In this document: piece after piece, positions 1,082-46,029 of the stretch | Numbering within the stretch: position 1 is the first letter of the stretch | How the letters are laid out: every line of letters starts with the position of its first letter | Source of the DNA: an uncultured Candidatus Saccharibacteria bacterium | GTDB taxonomy: Bacteria; Patescibacteriota; Minisyncoccia; Minisyncoccales; JAHCRE01 | Direction of reading: 5' to 3' | DNA length: 51,061 nt | Assembly: GCA_964354555.1 (NCBI GenBank) | Contig: CAYHAF010000001.1 | Location: 1 to 51,061, forward strand | Notes under the pieces: generated by a model | Told to the model about the DNA's origin: nothing | The model's input: only the letters and a program-made list of their open reading frames with translations | Databases searched by the model: none | Made by a program: the position numbers and the translations under genes

Positions 1082-1145
1082 ACCCCACCCTCTATGCTTG
1101 CAACTTGATTTTTACTAAAAATAACTAAAGCTTAGAAGGCGAGGT
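1082..1145 (-). repeat. degenerate PE-B hairpin next to a T-arm-like remnant (1060-1079)
   Basis: Minus strand reads ACCTCGCCTTCTAAGC ... GCATAGAGGGTGGGGT. All three arm differences from consensus are G.U-compatible only on the minus-strand transcript. Confidence 0.6.
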
Positions 1146-1226
1146 ATACAGGGCAAGCCAACAACTTAATATTGAGCTGACGGTCGGATTTGAACCGACA
1201 ACTTTACCCCCACACCTTAATTTCTG

Positions 1227-1383
1227 AGCCAGCGGTCGGAATCGAACCGACGGCCTACCCCGCCCTCTAAGCAAGCCGATGGGCAGAATCGAACTGCCAT
1301 CGATGGTTTACGAAACCATTGCTTTACCATTAAGCTACATCGGCATAAAGGGCGGGGTTGCTCTACCACTGAGCTATCCCAGC
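1227..1383 (-). pseudogene. middle split tRNA-like shell; anticodon arm replaced by the PE-B hairpin that contains tRNA-Thr
   Basis: GCTGGGA-TA-GCTC-AGTGGTA-GAGC-A then ACCCCGCCCT (1349-1358 on plus) ... AGGGCGGGGT (1257-1266), then AGGCC-GTCGG-TTCGATT-CCGAC-CGCTGGC-T. No anticodon loop. Acceptor only 5/7 pairable. Confidence 0.5.
1274..1344 (-). tRNA. tRNA-Thr(CGT)
   Basis: GCCGATG TA GCTT AATGGTA AAGC A ATGGT TTCGTAA ACCAT CGAT GGCAG TTCGATT CTGCC CATCGGC T. All four stems pair. 71 nt, no encoded CCA. Confidence 0.9.
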
Positions 1384-1532
1384 ATAAAAGGTGTGGGGGC
1401 TACGTTCCACTTCGCGAAACAGTTGCTCTACTATTGAACTACATCGGCACTATACGAAATTTATTTTATAAGTTTCGTCGTGCCCGATCAAAAATTTAAG
1501 TAATTAAATTTTTGATATAGGGCAAAAAATTA

Positions 1533-4517: not shown

Positions 4518-6159
4518 CTTTACGAAATTGTTTTAAAACTGAGGAATAAATTGTTTTCAGCTCAGGCGATTTAAAATAAAGGGAGGGTAAGACGTAGAAA
4601 ACCACACCAGTAACCGCAGCAAAAACCGTCTGACTAAAAATTCCCAAAACAGTATGGGTGTCAACGAAAATAGCTACAATATAAAGACTGAGGTAAGTAA
4701 AAACTGTTAAAATAATACTGCTAAAAATAATCTTCTTAAGAGAAGTATAAATTTCCTTAGCTCTTAAATCCCCAACCTTTTTATAGAGAAAAAATAGCAA
4801 CAAAAGAAACTGGAATATCGCTGCAACAATATAGGCCAAAGATAGACCAACAACTGAAATATTATCAATTCCTTTTAGCTTGAGTACATTAATAATAAAG
4901 TTTTGAAACACATTGGAAAATTTTAAAATGTTGACAAAAAAGAAACTTAAAACAATGTTCAAAATAATTGAGAAAATGGCGATCAGAGTTGGAGTTTTGG
5001 TATCCTTAAGAGCGAAAAAAGCACGGAAAATAAAAGGGATTAGAGCTGAAGCTAAAATACCTATTGAAAAAATACCCAAAGAGGCCGCAGTCAGTCTTGT
5101 GGGTCCCCAATCAAATTTATTCGCTCCAAAAGTGCCGTAAACCAATCTAATTATTTGAGCTCTCAGAATAAAAATCAAAAGAGAAACCGGAATAACCAAA
5201 AAAAGAATCTGCCGGAAAGTTACGGAAAAATTATCAAAAAAATCTTTTTTCTGGCCGTTTGCCCAGTGCCGGGAAAGCGTCGGAAAAACAGCTATAGCAA
5301 AAGAGGTACCAATAATACCTATGGGGAATGAGAAGATTGCATTAGAGAAACTAAAGATGGCGATTCCACCGGAAATAGTCGAGGCAATAGCAGTAATCAC
5401 CATCAGGTTTATCTGCTGACCAGCCAAGGCAAAAACTCTCGGCACCATCAAATAGAAAATTCTTTTTATTGCCGGGAATTTGAAATCGAAAATGGGTTTA
5501 TAAGAAAAGCCGGAATTTATTACAGACGGAATCTGAATTATCCAGTGCAGAAAGGCACCGATAATCACACCATAGCCCAATCCTAAAACTCCGAATCTCG
5601 GCTCCAAAACAACCATGCCGAAAATTATGCCGAGATTATACAATATTGGCGCAATTGAATAGACAAGAAAACGATTAAAATACTGCAGAATTCCGGAAAA
5701 AACAGATGATAAGCCAAAGAAAATTGGGCTCAAAAACATAATTCTCGTCAGAGATACAACCTTAGCTTTATCTTCCAGAGAAAAACCGGGAGCAATAAAC
5801 CTGATAAGAACGGGGGTAAAAATAAAAAGAATTAGGGAAATCAAAAAAAGCAAAAATAAGAAAATATTCAAAACTAAATTTGTCATTTTCCAAGCCTCTT
5901 CCTTGTCTTTTGAGTAGTATTCCGAAAATATCGGCAAGAAAGCAATCCCCAATCCCCCGACGATCAACAAGTTGTAGACCAGATCAGGAATTCTGAAAGC
6001 AGCAAAATAGATATTTGATTCTGCTTTGATCCCGAATTTACCAGCCAAAATTATGTCGCTGACCAAACCTAAAATACCGCTAATCACAGCTGAAATTCCA
6101 AGCAAAATTGCGGCAAAAGTAACAGTCTTAGATTTTGAATTTAAAATTCTTTTTAACAT
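4504..6159 (-). CDS. murJ: lipid II flippase MurJ/MviN
   Basis: 551 aa polytopic membrane protein with MviN-like N-terminus (GLVSDIILAGKFG). Confidence 0.85.
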   Translation of the reverse strand: MLKRILNSKSKTVTFAAILLGISAVISGILGLVSDIILAGKFGIKAESNIYFAAFRIPDLVYNLLIVGGLGIAFLPIFSEYYSKDKEEAWKMTNLVLNIFLFLLFLISLILFIFTPVLIRFIAPGFSLEDKAKVVSLTRIMFLSPIFFGLSSVFSGILQYFNRFLVYSIAPILYNLGIIFGMVVLEPRFGVLGLGYGVIIGAFLHWIIQIPSVINSGFSYKPIFDFKFPAIKRIFYLMVPRVFALAGQQINLMVITAIASTISGGIAIFSFSNAIFSFPIGIIGTSFAIAVFPTLSRHWANGQKKDFFDNFSVTFRQILFLVIPVSLLIFILRAQIIRLVYGTFGANKFDWGPTRLTAASLGIFSIGILASALIPFIFRAFFALKDTKTPTLIAIFSIILNIVLSFFFVNILKFSNVFQNFIINVLKLKGIDNISVVGLSLAYIVAAIFQFLLLLFFLYKKVGDLRAKEIYTSLKKIIFSSIILTVFTYLSLYIVAIFVDTHTVLGIFSQTVFAAVTGVVFYVLPSLYFKSPELKTIYSSVLKQFRKDGEH

Positions 6160-6252
6160 TTTGATACTCTATTTTAATATTTTATCTTAATTTTGCCAAT
6201 CTTATAATCGTTATTCTACTATTGACAAAGACTCCAAAATTGTTAAAATATA

Positions 6253-6681
6253 GCTGTCCTAGTAAGTTGAGTGATTGCCCTAAACTTTCTGAAAAGAAAG
6301 TCGGGAGGAAAGTCCGAACTCTCCCCCGCCCTCTAAGCCTTATGTTTCTCCATCCATGTAAATCAACACAGGGCATAGAGGGCGGGGTAAAAAGATAGTG
6401 GCTAACAGCCATCCACCGTAAGGTGCGAGGTGCGAACAGAGACGCTGAGAGACGAAAGTCTCGAAGCGCCCAGTCGAATGACTGGGCGAGCCGAGCACAT
6501 AACTTGTTATGTGCTCGGGTGAAACGGCTAAATCCTTATTGAGTGCAAGAACAAACCAAAAGTTATCCGAATATGGAAAACTTTTGTGAAAAGTAGTTCG
6601 CTTGAGTCAAACTGTAAGGTTTGACCTAGAGTAATAATCACTTTAAAACAGAATTCGGCTTACGGACTTACTAAGGACACC
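6253..6681 (+). ncRNA. rnpB: RNase P RNA (bacterial type A-like), carrying an inserted palindrome
   Basis: GGGAGGAAAGTCCGAAC (P4 5' strand, 6303-6319) and ACAGAATTCGGCTTAC (P4 3' strand, about 6649-6664). P1 pairing TGTCCTAGTAAGT (6255-6267) with ACTTACTAAGGACA (6666-6679). GNRA-type loops GTAA and GAAA. Confidence 0.85.
6324..6387 (+). repeat. PE-B hairpin inserted in the RNase P RNA gene
   Basis: Perfect 12-bp arms CCCCGCCCTCTA/TAGAGGGCGGGG. Left arm is 15/15 and right arm 15/16 identical to the arms flanking tRNA-Thr (1258-1272, 1342-1357). Confidence 0.8.
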
Positions 6682-6716
6682 GAGCACATAAATTTTTATG
6701 TGCTCGGTTTGTTTTC
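6680..6716 (+). terminator. hairpin plus T-tract after rnpB; the stem duplicates an internal rnpB hairpin
   Basis: CCGAGCACATAA atttt TTATGTGCTCGG then TTTGTTTTC. The same 12-bp stem occurs at 6491-6518 inside rnpB. Confidence 0.5.
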
Positions 6717-6734
6717 AAAAAATCAATAATTTAT

Positions 6735-7184
6735 TTAAATCAGTTTTTGAACCTTGTCTTTGCTGTCCAGGGCTTGGTTTGCCAGCCTATCGGCTTCTTG
6801 ATTTTTTTCCCGCGAGATTAATTTAAATTTTATCTTTTTAAAATCAATTTTTAAATTCCAAGTTTCCAAAAATAAAGGTTGTATTTTTTCATCTAAAATT
6901 TTATATTCTCCGTTTAATTGATTAATTAAAAGCTCGGAGTCTGATTTTAATTCGATTTCTGTATTTTTAGCCAACTTGTTTCCGAAAAGAGCTTTAAACT
7001 TTTTTAAGGCTAAAATAACCCCTCTATACTCGGCTTCATTATTGGTAATGTTTTCACCCAAATATTCGGAATATTCCTTAAAAATCTGGCCTTTTTCATT
7101 GCAAAAAACAAAGCCCACTGCCGAAGGACCAGGATTTCCACGGGAGCCGCCATCAACAAATATTATAACTTTCTTCACCCCCAC
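6735..7184 (-). CDS. rnhA: ribonuclease HI
   Basis: 149 aa, DGGSRGNPGPSAVG motif. The GTG start lies inside the PE-A arm (7178-7187). Confidence 0.85.
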   Translation of the reverse strand: MGVKKVIIFVDGGSRGNPGPSAVGFVFCNEKGQIFKEYSEYLGENITNNEAEYRGVILALKKFKALFGNKLAKNTEIELKSDSELLINQLNGEYKILDEKIQPLFLETWNLKIDFKKIKFKLISREKNQEADRLANQALDSKDKVQKLI

Positions 7185-9543: not shown

Positions 9544-11203
9544 CTTTTTTTTCTTCGTTGTTTTTATTATTTAAAGATTTTTCTATAGCTTCTCTTAATT
9601 CTCCCAAGTTAATCGGCTTTTTTATTTTTTTAGAATTAGAAAATGGTGTTGGCTCAGCCTTAAACGCTTCATTTAAAGAAATGGCTCTGTTTTGAGATGG
9701 GTCTGGAGTAATTCTTTGATTAGTATTTTGGCTTTCCGATTCTTTAATAATAGTATTATTTTTCTGTTTTTTTATTTTGCCTAAGCAAGTCTTGCAATAT
9801 ACTGGCCTTACTCCATCAGGAGGAAAGATGACTTTTGTCCATTTGTTACATGAAGAACATTTAGCATCATATAAAGCTTGTGTCGGCTGCGACTGGGGAA
9901 TGAAAACTTTTGGCACTTCTAAAACTTTTGACCAGCGGGCTATTTTGTCCTCAACTACTTTTCTTGAAGTTCCGTATCTCTCTCTTGAAACTTTAATAAT
10001 TTTTTCTTTATTTGATTTTGGTGGTTTTTCTGTCGGAGGCAAAGTTTGGGCAGAAAAAGGGCTGCTTGCTAATCCATCAATCATTAATTTTAAATAAATA
10101 TTGTATTTTGCTGAATTAACCAAATCTTCAGCAGTAAACTCAGGAGAAAATTCTCTTTCTAAAAATTCAGCGTCTTCGGCTCCAACCCGAAAACACATAA
10201 TTGTTCCAACGTTTCCGAAAACAGCATCTCTTACTTCTTCCTCCATCTGAGTGATATATTGGTGCCCGAGAACGAGGCCTAACCTGTATTTCCTGGCTTC
10301 AGATAGAATATTAACAAAAGATTCAGTGGCGAAATTCTGGAACTCATCAACATATAAGAAAAAATCTCTCCTCTTTTCTTCTAATATATTCACCCGGGAC
10401 ATGGCCGCCAATTGTATTTTTGTTATTAAAAGCGCCCCTAAGAGCATGGAATTGTCCTCTCCGATTCTTCCTTTTGATAGGTTCAAAATTAATATTTTAC
10501 CTTCATCCATAATCTTTCGCATATCAATAGTTGAGCTTACCTGGCCGATAATATTCCTAATCAAAGGGTTGGAAATAAATTGTCCGACTTTATTCTGAAT
10601 GGCGGCAGTTGCCTCAATTTCATACCTTTGGGTGTATCTGGCATATTCGGTAACCCAAAAAGACTTGACCACAGGGTCAGTAATTTTTTCCACCACTTTT
10701 TTTCTGTATTCAACGTCAGCCAACATTCTATTTATCCCAAGCAAGGTAGAATTCGGATACTCCAAAAGCGCCAAAATTGAATTGTTTAAAATATATTCCA
10801 TTCTGGCTGACCAAACGTCCGGCCAGATTTTCTTGAAAACTCCCATCAGTCCCGAAGCTACCAAGTGCCTCTGCGTAAAACCAACGCTCTCCATCACATT
10901 GAAAGCAATTGGATATTCTACATCGGCAGGGTTAAAATAAACAACGTCATTGACTCTGTTAGAAGGTATAAAATCCAGCAAACTTTCTGCCGCTTCCCCA
11001 TGAGGATCAACAAAACCCACTCCTCGACCAGCCATAATATCCTGAATAACCATATTTTCCAAAAGAGCGGTCTTCCCCATCCCTGTTTTACCAACAACAT
11101 AAATATGCCGACGTCTGTCGTCGAGTTTTACCCCAAATTTTTTCCTTTCGTTTCTAAAAGTTGTCTCGCCGAGAAAAATTATATTATTATTGTTATTTGG
11201 CAT
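9521..11203 (-). CDS. TraD/VirD4-like P-loop ATPase with C-terminal CxxC...CxxC zinc ribbon
   Basis: 560 aa. Walker A GKTGMGKT, Walker B FFLYVDEFQNF, no TM segment. C-terminal CSSCNKW...YCKTC. Confidence 0.7.
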   Translation of the reverse strand: MPNNNNNIIFLGETTFRNERKKFGVKLDDRRRHIYVVGKTGMGKTALLENMVIQDIMAGRGVGFVDPHGEAAESLLDFIPSNRVNDVVYFNPADVEYPIAFNVMESVGFTQRHLVASGLMGVFKKIWPDVWSARMEYILNNSILALLEYPNSTLLGINRMLADVEYRKKVVEKITDPVVKSFWVTEYARYTQRYEIEATAAIQNKVGQFISNPLIRNIIGQVSSTIDMRKIMDEGKILILNLSKGRIGEDNSMLLGALLITKIQLAAMSRVNILEEKRRDFFLYVDEFQNFATESFVNILSEARKYRLGLVLGHQYITQMEEEVRDAVFGNVGTIMCFRVGAEDAEFLEREFSPEFTAEDLVNSAKYNIYLKLMIDGLASSPFSAQTLPPTEKPPKSNKEKIIKVSRERYGTSRKVVEDKIARWSKVLEVPKVFIPQSQPTQALYDAKCSSCNKWTKVIFPPDGVRPVYCKTCLGKIKKQKNNTIIKESESQNTNQRITPDPSQNRAISLNEAFKAEPTPFSNSKKIKKPINLGELREAIEKSLNNKNNEEKKGENTKGL

Positions 11204-14073: not shown

Positions 14074-14098
14074 ACAAATGCCGGCGGTCGGATTTTCA

Positions 14099-14153
14099 CC
14101 CTGTTAAATAATTTCTCTTTTGGGAAATTCCCGCTTTGCGGGATTTAACAGGG
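14099..14153. repeat. PE-E palindromic element in the T loop of the outer shell
   Basis: CCCTGTTAAAT ... CCCGCTTTGCGGG ATTTAACAGGG. The same arms and inner hairpin occur at 45018-45081. Confidence 0.75.
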
Positions 14154-14199
14154 CGGGCCGACGACCTAGCGCTTACTCGCCCCCACACCATAATTATTG

Positions 14200-14385
14200 T
14201 GCCAGAGGTGGGGGTCGAACCTTCACCCGCCTAAATTTCTAATTATGGCTGCGAGAGGATTTGAACCTCTGACCCAACGCTTATGAAACGTTCGCTCTAC
14301 CACTGAGCTACGCAGCCAAAAATTTTTGGCGGGCAAGCGACCTCTCGCTTATGAAACGAATGCTCTACCACTGAGCTACTCTGGC
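14200..14385 (-). pseudogene. middle split tRNA(CAT)-like shell, interrupted at the T stem by PE-F arms enclosing tRNA-Met
   Basis: GCCAGAG TA GCTC AGTGGTA GAGC A TTCGT TTCATAA GCGAG AGGTC, then CCCGCC (14328-14333 on plus) ... GGCGGG (14226-14231), then GAAGG TTCGACC CCCAC CTCTGGC A. Acceptor 7/7, residual T stem only 3/5. Confidence 0.6.
14246..14317 (-). tRNA. tRNA-Met(CAT), elongator or Ile2-type, innermost gene of the nest
   Basis: GGCTGCG TA GCTC AGTGGTA GAGC G AACGT TTCATAA GCGTT GGGTC AGAGG TTCAAAT CCTCT CGCAGCC A. Canonical, 72 nt. Confidence 0.9.
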
Positions 14386-14529
14386 CGAATTTGGTGTGGG
14401 GGTGAAAAACGAATGCTCTTCCGGGGTGATTTTTAACGCCTCGCAGGGACGCTCAACTAAATCACCCGTGTAAGACAAGCAGTTGTCTTACACCCACTGA
14501 GCTACGCCGGCCCAGACCAAACTCTCTTG

Positions 14530-14672: not shown

Positions 14673-14840
14673 ACCCCGCACTAATTTTGCCATAACATTC
14701 CTTGCAGCGCACGATGAGCGAATAGCTCAGTCCGCCAAAGGCGGACAATACTATTCGTATTAAGTGCGCTGCGATAATTTAATCTAATTCTGTAATGATT
14801 AAAATACGATACAATTGGAAAAGCAAAATTAGTGCGGGGT
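14673..14840. repeat. 168-nt clamped structured element (18-bp perfect arms ACCCCGCACTAATTTTGC)
   Basis: Arms 14673-14690 / 14823-14840. Nested inner helices GCAGCGCAC/GTGCGCTGC (14704-14712 / 14764-14772), CGAATAG/CTATTCG, TCCGCC/GGCGGA. Confidence 0.7.
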
Positions 14841-38329: not shown

Positions 38330-38478
38330 CCTGGTAGTAGAAATTAGACTAAAATTAATTTTAACGTTGCTGCCCGCCCCGTAGTAGAATTTCGACAGGA
38401 GCGAAGCTCTTTATTTACCCGTAGGGTAGTCGAAATTTCACTACGGGGCCCGGCAGCAGTCGAATTTTCACTACCGGG
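38330..38478. repeat. nested PE-C palindromes (hairpin inside hairpin) filling an entire intergenic spacer
   Basis: Outer arms 38330-38349 / 38459-38478. Inner arms 38369-38396 / 38429-38457. Core hairpins GAGC/GCTC and TACCC/GGGTA. Confidence 0.75.
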
Positions 38479-42237: not shown

Positions 42238-43191
42238 CCAATAGCTTGGAAACGATCTGATACAATATATCTGATACAATATACATGTATCAATAAATCA
42301 TTTCTAAATATGCCATACACAATTAATCCTCAAATGCCTAAACTACGGGCAAGAGCAGTTAATATGGTCAGAGCGGGCAAATCAATCAGCGAAGTGGCCA
42401 GATATTTTGGCTATTCAAAGGGCGCGGTCAGCAAATGGAATCAGAAAGTTCCGCCAGGAGGAGTGCGTGAAATTCCAACTCGGTCTTCTCGGCCCCATCA
42501 TCACCCACGGGAACTATCAGAAGAAATCGTTAAAGCTATCGTTGCTTGTAGAAAGAAATACAAACGTTGCAGCGATGTCATCCACCAACATTTAATTAAG
42601 GATGGAATCAGAGTCTGTTTAAACAGCGTAAAACGAAAATTGGACGATGCCGGATTGATCAAGAAACGCAGTCCCTGGAAAAGATTGCATCTGCCAATTG
42701 AGCGTCCTCTGCCTTTAAAACCTGGGGATTTGGTCATTGTTGATACCATTCATCTAATGGTGAATGGAAAGAAAAGAATCTATGTCTATACTTTAATCGA
42801 CGTCTATTCGCGCTGGTGCTTTGCTTGGGCGACAGGAAGGATTAATACAAGATTAAGCATTGGATTTTTGAAGAAAGCCCGAGCCTTAGCGCCGTTTAGG
42901 TTTAATTGCATCCAATCCGATTATGGCAGTGAATTTTCCCAACATTTCAGCGAACGAATAAAGATATTGCATCGGCATTCCAGGGTTAGAAAACCCAATG
43001 ACAATTCCTATCTTGAAAGATTCAACCGGACTTTGCAGGAAGAATGCTTAAGAAATTTGCCGGTTGATGTTAAAATATTCAATAAAGCATTACCAGAATA
43101 TTTAAACTATTACAACCAAGAAAGATTACATATGGGAATCAATTTTCAAACACCAAATCAATTACTAAAATGTTTCCAAGCTATTGGATAG
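42238..43191 (+). mobile_element. IS481-family insertion sequence
   Basis: Perfect 16-bp inverted repeats CCAATAGCTTGGAAAC (42238-42253) / GTTTCCAAGCTATTGG (43172-43187). Flanking ATAGC / ATAGA may be a target duplication. 14-nt tandem duplication at 42255-42282. Confidence 0.85.
42310..43191 (+). CDS. DDE (rve) transposase, IS481 family
   Basis: 293 aa. N-terminal HTH, and a DDE candidate triad in VIVDTIH, IQSDYGSEF and LERFNRTLQEE. Confidence 0.85.
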   Translation: MPYTINPQMPKLRARAVNMVRAGKSISEVARYFGYSKGAVSKWNQKVPPGGVREIPTRSSRPHHHPRELSEEIVKAIVACRKKYKRCSDVIHQHLIKDGIRVCLNSVKRKLDDAGLIKKRSPWKRLHLPIERPLPLKPGDLVIVDTIHLMVNGKKRIYVYTLIDVYSRWCFAWATGRINTRLSIGFLKKARALAPFRFNCIQSDYGSEFSQHFSERIKILHRHSRVRKPNDNSYLERFNRTLQEECLRNLPVDVKIFNKALPEYLNYYNQERLHMGINFQTPNQLLKCFQAIG

Positions 43192-45963: not shown

Positions 45964-46029
45964 ACCCCGTTAGAAACTTAAAAGCAACGATAGAAAAAAT
46001 GTAATCTTATAAGAAATTTCTAACGGGGT
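45964..46029. repeat. hairpin ACCCCGTTAGAAA / TTTCTAACGGGGT (PE-D)
   Basis: 13-bp arms, 40-nt AT-rich loop, between map and the GT2 gene. Confidence 0.6.

Follow-up and report, generated by a model that had tools for sequence, protein, structure and literature searches.

A hairpin of a dispersed palindromic family with GIY-YIG nuclease genes in a peripheral helix of a Patescibacteria RNase P RNA gene

The RNase P RNA gene (rnpB) of a Patescibacteria chromosomal segment carries a 64-nt hairpin between helices P5 and P7, which we consider likely to be a gene-less copy of a palindromic element from a GIY-YIG-associated family, lodged in a native helix slot and kept there as a long helix. The family to which the hairpin belongs, here called the E family, is widely dispersed, its full-length copies contain a nuclease gene, and its members recur in other helices of rnpB. 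The main points of interest are the nuclease link, this recurrent colonisation of rnpB helices, and nested tRNA genes in which arms of the same family take part.

The hairpin and the rnpB helix slot

The window, i.e. the whole stretch of 51,061 nucleotides that was analysed, contains housekeeping genes including lepA, murJ, pgk, gatA, mreB, secY and rpoA and represents a Patescibacteria (Parcubacteria/Nealsonbacteria-like) chromosomal segment. Its MurJ shares at most about 60% identity with proteins of Patescibacteria genome bins. The rnpB gene and the E-family hairpins first considered are the following.

6259 to 6678, plus strand: rnpB (RNase P RNA), class-A-like, of a diverged Patescibacteria type, recognised by Rfam RF00010, P4 strands and synteny
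6324 to 6387, plus strand: E-family palindromic element, most likely a gene-less miniature copy, in the helix between P5 and P7 (P5.1 position)
6324 to 6338, plus strand: 5' arm of this element, CCCCGCCCTCTAAGC, identical in 15/15 positions to 1258-1272
6373 to 6387, plus strand: 3' arm of this element, GCATAGAGGGCGGGG, identical together with the flanking T in 15/16 positions to 1343-1358
1083 to 1144, minus strand: degenerate free-standing E-family hairpin with 3 substitutions, all of them forming G.U pairs on the minus (tRNA-sense) strand

A sequence-only reading of this DNA had placed the hairpin within a genuine RNase P RNA gene, and a scan with the Rfam bacterial class A model supports the assignment. 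The RF00010 match covers the full model span (1-367) with 89 bits and an E-value of 1.7e-27. The curated gathering score of this model is 100 bits, and a default Rfam scan missed the gene because 89 bits falls under this cut-off, while the rnpB genes of relatives reach 100-143 bits. The P1-P4 framework is present, with both P4 strands (GAGGAAAGUCC ... ACAGAA-N-GGCUUA) aligned at high posterior probability. In addition, rnpB adjoins murJ in the window, as it does in more than 30 relatives. RNase P RNAs of CPR bacteria have been described as diverged, with large helix extensions and scores below the Rfam cut-off, and as requiring lowered thresholds (PMC8172020). Elements such as the one described here explain part of this irregularity, both in the long helix extensions and in the scores below standard-model thresholds.

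Within rnpB, the segment GGGAGGAAAGTCCGAACTCTC (6303-6323) is followed by CCCCGCCCTCTAAGC, 34 nt of interior sequence, and GCATAGAGGGCGGGG. Inspection of the sequence confirmed the perfect 12-bp arms reported earlier for the 64-nt hairpin; these outer pairs are followed by an A.A mismatch and then by further pairs, and RNAfold on the hairpin segment gives 21 bp and -35.7 kcal/mol. The near-identity of the arms to the sequences flanking tRNA-Thr at 1258-1357 was likewise verified, the difference being located in the 3' arm with its T (GCATAGAGGGCGGGGT in the rnpB hairpin vs GCATAAAGGGCGGGGT at 1343-1358). When the 15-mer arm was searched for in the window with up to 3 mismatches, 6 sites were obtained (1083-1097, 1130-1144, 1258-1272, 1343-1357, 6324-6338 and 6373-6387), against a chance expectation of 0.5; this number was reached in 0 of 100 shuffles. 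The segment 6324-6387 shows all attributes of the E family, namely the arms (A)CCCCGCCCTCTAAGC / GCATAGAGGGCGGGG(T), here in their exact form, the A.A mismatch and the variable interior.

To compare the position of the hairpin among relatives, we used rnpB genes located near murJ in 33 related genome bins, together with those of two metagenome contigs. P5 (ACUC/GAGU) and P7 (GAUA/UAUU in the window, GGCA/UGCC in L005) were assigned from pairings read from the sequence. A hairpin of 3-17 bp is present in the slot in 34/34 related rnpB genes, 29 of which were folded and 5 read by eye. In these genes the slot is bounded by GAGGAAAGTCCGAAC and P5 on one side, and by the conserved (T)AAAAAGATAG-P8 stretch on the other. 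The slot helix is thus a native, clade-wide peripheral element, and the window copy is unusual in its length and sequence. Because a hairpin occupies this slot in all 34 Parcubacteria relatives examined, the hairpin in the window is not an added helix, and its earlier description as an extra helix inserted into rnpB had to be abandoned. The E-family element instead fills or replaces a native peripheral helix of rnpB.

In ordinary class-A RNAs, of which the rnpB of WOR-3 (L182) is an example, the slot has no hairpin and consists of a single-stranded junction alone. The slot hairpins of the related genes have mostly species-unique sequences, and the proposal that most of them are repeat-family members was rejected for that reason. 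Clear multi-copy arms at the slot were detected in this data set in the window (E family) and in L034 (K family) only, while the slot hairpins of L013 and L016 may qualify as repeat-family members when inspected by eye. The slot hairpin can be likened to P5.1 of class-B (Bacillus-type) RNase P RNA, which also lies between P5 and P7, in RNAs without the P6/P16/P17 arrangement. However, the host RNA in the window is otherwise class-A-like according to Rfam, and the likeness drawn here is one of position.

Dispersal of the E family and its nuclease gene

When public metagenomes were scanned for the two arms of the family consensus, ACCCCGCCCTCTAAGC - variable interior - GCATAGAGGGCGGGGT, at least 124 copies were obtained on at least 120 contigs, in at least 107 unique flank contexts. 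Membership of the hairpin in a repeat family, as supposed from the window alone, is therefore supported by dispersal through many unrelated genomic contexts. The consensus built from 107 unique copies takes the form ACC-CCGCCCTCTAAGC ... GCATAGAGGGCGG-GGT. Among the matches listed, 76 of the 124 copies are located outside any open frame. As an illustration of copies within protein genes, the in-frame copy in an Mfd helicase coincides exactly with a stretch of about 22 residues by which this protein exceeds E. coli Mfd, and a radical-SAM enzyme carries an in-frame copy after its cysteine motif. Copies were also found inside 16S rRNA on four contigs. No copies were found in viral contigs.

Further copies reside in other helices of rnpB, and Rfam confirms that those in L026, L015 and L104 lie within the gene. 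In all three the element is located in P3, and in L026 the sequence in common with the window hairpin extends well past the arms, to 25 nt at the 5' end and 18 nt at the 3' end. Another copy is situated in a P12-like helix of L017/L131. The window hairpin shows how such palindromes come to lodge in essential structured-RNA genes and leave them intact, and nature has here set up an experiment that tells which helices an essential ribozyme allows to be replaced. Palindromes of this kind in RNase P RNA did not come up in a literature search of incomplete coverage. Both orientations of E-family copies occur in RNA genes, the reversal turning the A.A mismatch into U.U, and the sense orientation to which the sequence-only reading had drawn attention has accordingly little meaning.

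The same reading had spoken of a palindrome family. A palindrome it is, but the palindrome alone does not describe the family, since full-length members have a gene for a GIY-YIG (UPF0213/Slx1-like) nuclease of about 73-85 aa packed between the family inverted repeats. In L129 and L165, arms identical to those of the window hairpin enclose a 73-aa ORF, the stop codon of which is placed inside the 3' arm. This ORF is carried between identical arms by L129 and 15 further contigs (represented by L165-L170), and it matches Pfam GIY-YIG PF01541 with 38 bits, compared with a cut-off of 22.6. A truncated version of the ORF is found between the arms in L105. Searching with a profile of small GIY-YIG proteins yielded 2927 homologues at E<=1e-5, many of them labelled Patescibacteria. 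By sequence, the closest solved relatives are UPF0213 proteins and the structure-specific endonuclease SLX1.

Tight bracketing by inverted repeats of 13-23 nt was observed for 7/8 GIY-YIG genes examined, while the maximum score of the null set, 216 trials with random intervals in the same loci, was 9. The bracketing arms are those of sister families (CCCCCACACC, CCCCGTTAGAA and CCGAGCACATAA), which have the same ACCCC...GGGGT ends and coexist in these genomes. Because full-length copies and other small GIY-YIG genes have such brackets, the window hairpin has most likely been derived from a GIY-YIG palindromic element as a miniature version that lacks the gene. A search of the 51-kb window for a GIY-YIG gene or a remnant of one was negative, and the proposed link of the window hairpin to the nuclease depends on the arms in common and on a weak similarity of the sub-terminal sequence. 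Like a MITE, the hairpin is small (64 nt), has no ORF, and possesses terminal inverted repeats in common with a gene-bearing element. Target-site duplications are lacking, as direct repeats of 2-8 nt did not exceed permutation controls at five boundary offsets in 107 copies.

The rnpB of L013 directly parallels the window case, as a full-length GIY-YIG element stands there in place of P3 and a miniature hairpin with the same arms is located at the P5.1 slot. In rnpB of WOR-3 (L182/L183), a GIY-YIG element is also found in place of P3. We propose that the GIY-YIG nuclease mobilises the palindromic elements, possibly through cleavage at the base of DNA hairpins or cruciforms; such an action is suggested by the replacement of the entire P3 helix of rnpB in five species. 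If it is true that the nuclease targets DNA hairpins, a new route for selfish DNA into structured-RNA genes would be at hand. The idea that insertion favours the apices of larger hairpins was not supported, the comparison of flank pairing with permuted flanks being marginal (p = 0.07 for pair count and 0.05 for energy), and stems rarely extending past ACC/GGT.

A more far-reaching proposal, which we put forward tentatively and regard as rather doubtful, is that the palindromes are the ends of an uncharacterised kind of mobile element whose minimal, structure-recognising, Slx1-like GIY-YIG nuclease would provide a general way of remodelling essential RNAs in Patescibacteria. The nuclease would then recognise hairpin or cruciform DNA rather than sequence. 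Whole helices would be swapped or extended, including P3, the P5.1 slot and P12 in rnpB, helix tips in rRNA, and loops in tRNA, and tRNA genes would be left with an intact tRNA copy nested in a disrupted one.

We have also addressed the possibility that the arms represent a functional RNA motif, i.e. a protein binding or processing site selected independently in RNase P RNA, in tRNA surroundings and in rRNA. The arm sequence is kept across species in which MurJ identity is just 50-60%, the A.A mismatch is conserved, and sense-strand G.U pairs are kept in the RNA-gene copies, all of which agrees with such a motif. On the other hand, copies are present in RNA genes in both orientations, with A.A changed to U.U; they are mostly intergenic and some are translated in frame; full-length copies contain a nuclease gene; and the same rnpB slot is occupied by unrelated sequences in most relatives. 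Orientation and context largely refute an independently selected motif, and we attach hardly any probability to it. Derivation of the hairpin from a GIY-YIG palindromic element is the reading retained here.

Nested tRNA genes

Family arms are indeed present on both sides of tRNA-Thr, as had been claimed, but to describe them as a simple flanking repeat is inaccurate, since they form part of nested tRNA genes. Two such nests were identified in the window.

1175 to 1448, minus strand: nest of tRNA genes composed of relic A, C arms, shell B, E arms and an intact tRNA-Thr
1258 to 1357, minus strand: E-family arms (1258-1272 and 1343-1357) enclosing tRNA-Thr(CGU) at 1274-1344
14079 to 14511, minus strand: second nest, in which tRNA-like X contains C-family arms, these contain tRNA-like Y, and Y contains tRNA-Met

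On the minus strand, the first nest is ordered as the 5' half of A, a C arm, the 5' part of B, an E arm and tRNA-Thr(CGU), followed by the mirror arrangement. The outer Thr-like relic A consists of a 5' half (1448-1415) that ends in ACTGT-TTCG, within the anticodon, and a 3' half (1206-1175). Next to it are arms of the C family (the CCCCCACACC family) at 1399-1390 and 1216-1207, and further inwards the tRNA-like shell B (1383-1358 and 1257-1227) surrounds the E arms and the intact tRNA-Thr. In-silico splicing of shell B produces a tRNA frame with no consistent anticodon. The stem that brackets tRNA-Thr comprises 13 bp on the tRNA strand, including one U.G pair.

Orthologous nests exist in L034, L015 and L017, the latter two with different arms, and only 3' relics of the nest are present in L104, L004, L008 and L026. 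In L034, a stem-bracketed inner tRNA-Thr(CGU) splits an outer tRNA-Thr(CGU) between anticodon nucleotides 35 and 36, and exact removal of the insert gives back the canonical outer tRNA. A survey of 99 tRNAs (1.16 Mb) revealed GC-rich brackets of at least 9 bp exclusively at three tRNA-Thr(CGU) genes; a fourth match is an AT-rich stem beside tRNA-Val.

In the second nest, the outer tRNA-like gene X has hairpin inserts in the D-loop, the anticodon loop and the T-loop. The C-family arms (14177-14190 and 14392-14405) enclose tRNA-like Y (14385-14200), which in turn encloses an intact tRNA-Met (14245-14318), and a partial tRNA match was obtained at 14332-14385. ARAGORN run with introns allowed predicted no extra tRNAs in the window.

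Both the tRNA inserts and the rnpB hairpin could in principle be protein-spliced hairpin introns, cut by an endonuclease at the helix base and rejoined by a ligase (e.g. RtcB), by which the outer tRNAs would be rescued as well. The canonical tRNA-Thr(CGU) restored in L034 and the inserts in three loops of X are compatible with this. No archaeal-type bulge-helix-bulge motif (two 3-nt bulges, 4-bp helix) could be recognised, however; the stem of the rnpB hairpin is continuous from its base, and stems are continuous at the tRNA brackets too. When group I/II intron models were run over 6000-6900 with E-values up to 10, the sole intron-family row was a 14-nt match at 6449-6462 (E 9.4). A group I/II intron was rejected on the grounds that no Rfam match above chance was present and that the element is far too short. 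A Pfam scan of the 30 largest ORFs of the window revealed no splicing enzyme gene. Among the long ORFs that appear after in-silico excision, the best case, in L122/L157 (383-389 aa), was discarded as support, being an artefact in the form of a nusB + rnc read-through fusion. Since there is no bulge-helix-bulge, no intron model match, and the L122/L157 ORF is artefactual, splicing with ligation is very unlikely in our view.

The outer tRNAs themselves are decayed, with stem mismatches, truncated anticodon stems and non-canonical T-loops, and in L104 the 5' half is absent. Because of this decay, the outer tRNA genes are interpreted as relics disrupted by insertions that brought a working copy, which suggests that elements can replace a tRNA gene by the copy inside the insertion. 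Pointing the same way, GIY-YIG genes in L110 and L176 abut tRNA-Gln and have an upstream duplicate of tRNA nucleotides 1-26. In a literature search of incomplete coverage, no description of nested tRNA genes in CPR bacteria was found.

Fate of the hairpin in the RNA and comparison with known systems

The hairpin is probably transcribed together with rnpB and remains part of the RNA, where it would form a long peripheral helix. Retention in the mature ribozyme is favoured because the slot always bears a helix and its length is freely variable, so that the hairpin would represent, at 21 bp, a lengthened form of a helix with non-critical length. Furthermore, copies located in frame in ORFs are translated through, and the family is therefore not generally removed from RNA. 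Arm substitutions in the RNA-gene copies are C-to-T on the sense strand in 9/9 cases, with G.U pairing kept. This bias could be a consequence of transcription-associated mutation instead of selection for pairing.

Bacterial rRNA intervening sequences, with which the hairpin had been compared from the outset, proved to be a fair analogy. They are extended stem-loops that take the place of a helix tip in an essential structural RNA and are patchily distributed among relatives, and the hairpin has each of these features. In contrast to them, the host is here RNase P RNA, and the family is dispersed genome-wide, including ORFs and intergenic DNA. Intervening sequences of rRNA are cut by RNase III. 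If the rnpB hairpin had the same fate, RNase III would cut the stem without rejoining, and a two-fragment RNase P RNA held by P1-P5 and P7 would result, in parallel to fragmented 23S rRNA. RNase P RNA is generally known to tolerate breaks in peripheral loops.

A stem of 21 bp and -35.7 kcal/mol is long enough as a substrate of RNase III, and the helix-tip position, the sporadic occurrence among relatives and the E-family copies at helix tips of 16S rRNA are in line with cleavage, as are short non-intron insertions atop stem-loops in CPR rRNA genes, mentioned in passages of PMC11270868. Against this, removal is unneeded where a native slot helix exists in all relatives examined, and the in-frame protein copies speak against general removal from RNA. 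We consider cleavage into two fragments unlikely, and a retained helix remains our preferred reading.

The CPR rRNA insertions deserve comparison in their own right. Passages of Tsurumaki et al. 2024 (PMC11270868) report non-intron insertions, unlike group I/II introns, that are located on top of stem-loops or at their base; some of them encode GIY-YIG proteins, and many are uncharacterised short inserts (< 200 bp) that lack an ORF. The host group is the same, and E-family copies inside 16S rRNA were found in the present study. The difference is that these passages do not connect the short inserts with GIY-YIG copies through shared arms, nor do they include intergenic or ORF copies. By term search, inverted repeats, hairpins, RNase P RNA and tRNA genes are unmentioned in that paper. 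Our results tie short unexplained insertions in CPR rRNA to a single kind of agent, namely palindromic elements with which GIY-YIG nucleases of very small size are associated.

Rickettsia palindromic elements (RPE) are small selfish palindromes that occur in frame in protein genes and in non-coding DNA and are tolerated if non-disruptive. The E family resembles them in size, palindromic structure and location, but differs in its unrelated sequences, in the host phylum, and in having GIY-YIG-bearing full-length copies; to our knowledge, no nuclease gene is associated with RPE. REP/REPIN sequences are short GC-rich palindromes with a GTAG or CGTC tag, mobilised by RAYT, which are Y1 (IS200/IS605-like) transposases. 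Many-copy GC-rich hairpin palindromes and a dedicated single-copy enzyme gene flanked by repeats are common to both systems. Unlike REP/REPIN-RAYT, the E family has neither a Y1 transposase nor the GTAG/CGTC 5' tag; its enzyme is a GIY-YIG nuclease, its arms start with ACCCC, and its copies occur within genes. The E family is thus set apart from intervening sequences, RPE and REP/REPIN-RAYT by its associated gene, by the absence of an end sequence tag, or by in-gene occurrence.

Genome-wide repeats in a peripheral rnpB helix have a precedent in cyanobacteria, where STRR repeats reportedly reside in the P12 helix of RNase P RNA, as is said to have been described by Vioque in 1997, and entail no loss of function. 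These are tandem heptamers, in contrast to the palindromic element with an associated nuclease considered here.

Two more hairpins, both of the K family, are located in or next to rnpB of the window.

6491 to 6518, plus strand: second repeat-family hairpin within rnpB (K family, CCGAGCACATAA...TTATGTGCTCGG), in the distal specificity-domain region
6680 to 6707, plus strand: K-family hairpin with a T-run, directly 3' of the end of the Rfam match

The first of them is the same palindrome that forms the P5.1-position hairpin in rnpB of L034. Judging by its T-run and location, the second looks like the intrinsic terminator of rnpB.

Nested tRNA genes

Intact tRNA genes were found inside other tRNA genes at two places in the window, and the first of these nests recurs in relatives:
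Window 1175-1448, minus strand: tRNA-Thr(CGU) nest
L034 8390-8585, L015 8215-8375 and L017 8279-8455 (relatives): tRNA-Thr(CGU) nests
Window 14079-14511, minus strand: second tRNA nest

In all four tRNA-Thr(CGU) nests, the anticodon region of an outer, Thr-like tRNA gene harbours a tRNA-Thr(CGU) that is intact and enclosed by a stem; in L034 the outer gene is broken between nucleotides 35 and 36. Three levels of nesting are present in the window copy. In the second nest, a tRNA-like gene (X) carries hairpin inserts in the D-loop (two in tandem), the anticodon loop and the T-loop. The insert in the anticodon loop, which has the arms CCCCCACACC/GGTGTGGGGG, contains another tRNA-like gene (Y, CAU), and this in turn encloses an intact tRNA-Met at 14245-14318. 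The outer genes of the tRNA-Thr(CGU) nests look like decaying relics. To our knowledge, tRNA-in-tRNA nesting has not been described from bacteria.

Nuclease genes and palindromes at RNase P RNA, rRNA and tRNA genes

In the RNase P RNA gene (rnpB) of one Patescibacteria bin (L013) and two WOR-3 genomes (L182 and L183), the place of helix P3 is taken by a complete GIY-YIG nuclease gene of small size, flanked on both sides by inverted repeats; in these three, the Rfam alignment is limited to the portion of rnpB downstream of the insert.
L013 925-1230: GIY-YIG gene in place of P3
L182 and L183 1001-1255: GIY-YIG gene in place of P3

A further palindrome, CCGAGCACATAA...TTATGTGCTCGG, is present twice at the rnpB locus of the window:
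Window 6491-6518 and 6680-6707: palindrome copies

The copy at 6491-6518 is an internal helix of rnpB; the one at 6680-6707, followed by a T-run, looks by its sequence like the rnpB terminator. The same palindrome makes up the hairpin in the P5.1 slot of rnpB in L034.

Copies of the dispersed palindromic E family were also detected within 16S rRNA genes:
L121 3781-3824 and 2464-2559; L158 5440-5495: close to the 3' end
L154 506-550; L068 2682-2738: 5' domain

All four compact 16S copies are oriented opposite to the E-family copy in the window rnpB. In addition to its 16S copies, contig L121 has a group I intron match within the 23S rRNA gene (10300-10625).

A small GIY-YIG ORF also occurs at tRNA-Gln(UUG) in two loci:
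L110 1732-2051; L176 1001-1311: GIY-YIG ORF
In both, it overlaps the first 12-15 nt of the tRNA, and nucleotides 1-26 of that tRNA are duplicated ahead of the ORF; in L110 the duplicate has a D-loop hairpin.

E-family copies in protein genes

In-frame copies are translated as PPS...EGG in an Mfd-like helicase and in a radical-SAM enzyme, in the latter directly past the cysteine motif. Rickettsia palindromic elements behave similarly.
L138 1606-1650; L118 2802-2849; also L078 and L080: in-frame copies

Other repeats and a probable insertion sequence in the window

Window 14673-14840: perfect 18-nt inverted repeats, ACCCCGCACTAATTTTGC / GCAAAATTAGTGCGGGGT
Window 42310-43191, plus strand: ORF with integrase core domain (rve)

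The 18-nt repeats are separated by 132 nt with more internal pairing (GCAGCGCAC...GTGCGCTGC); neither an Rfam match nor a GIY-YIG remnant was found at 14673-14840. The rve ORF, on the strand opposite to the majority of genes, is probably an insertion sequence and shows no visible link to the palindromes. Sister palindrome families also form free-standing intergenic hairpins at 45964-46029 and 38376-38449, one being ACCCCGTTAGAAACTT... and the other GCCCCGTAGTAGAATTTCGAC...; the ACCCCGTTAGAAACTT... family is the one that brackets tRNA-Thr in L017.
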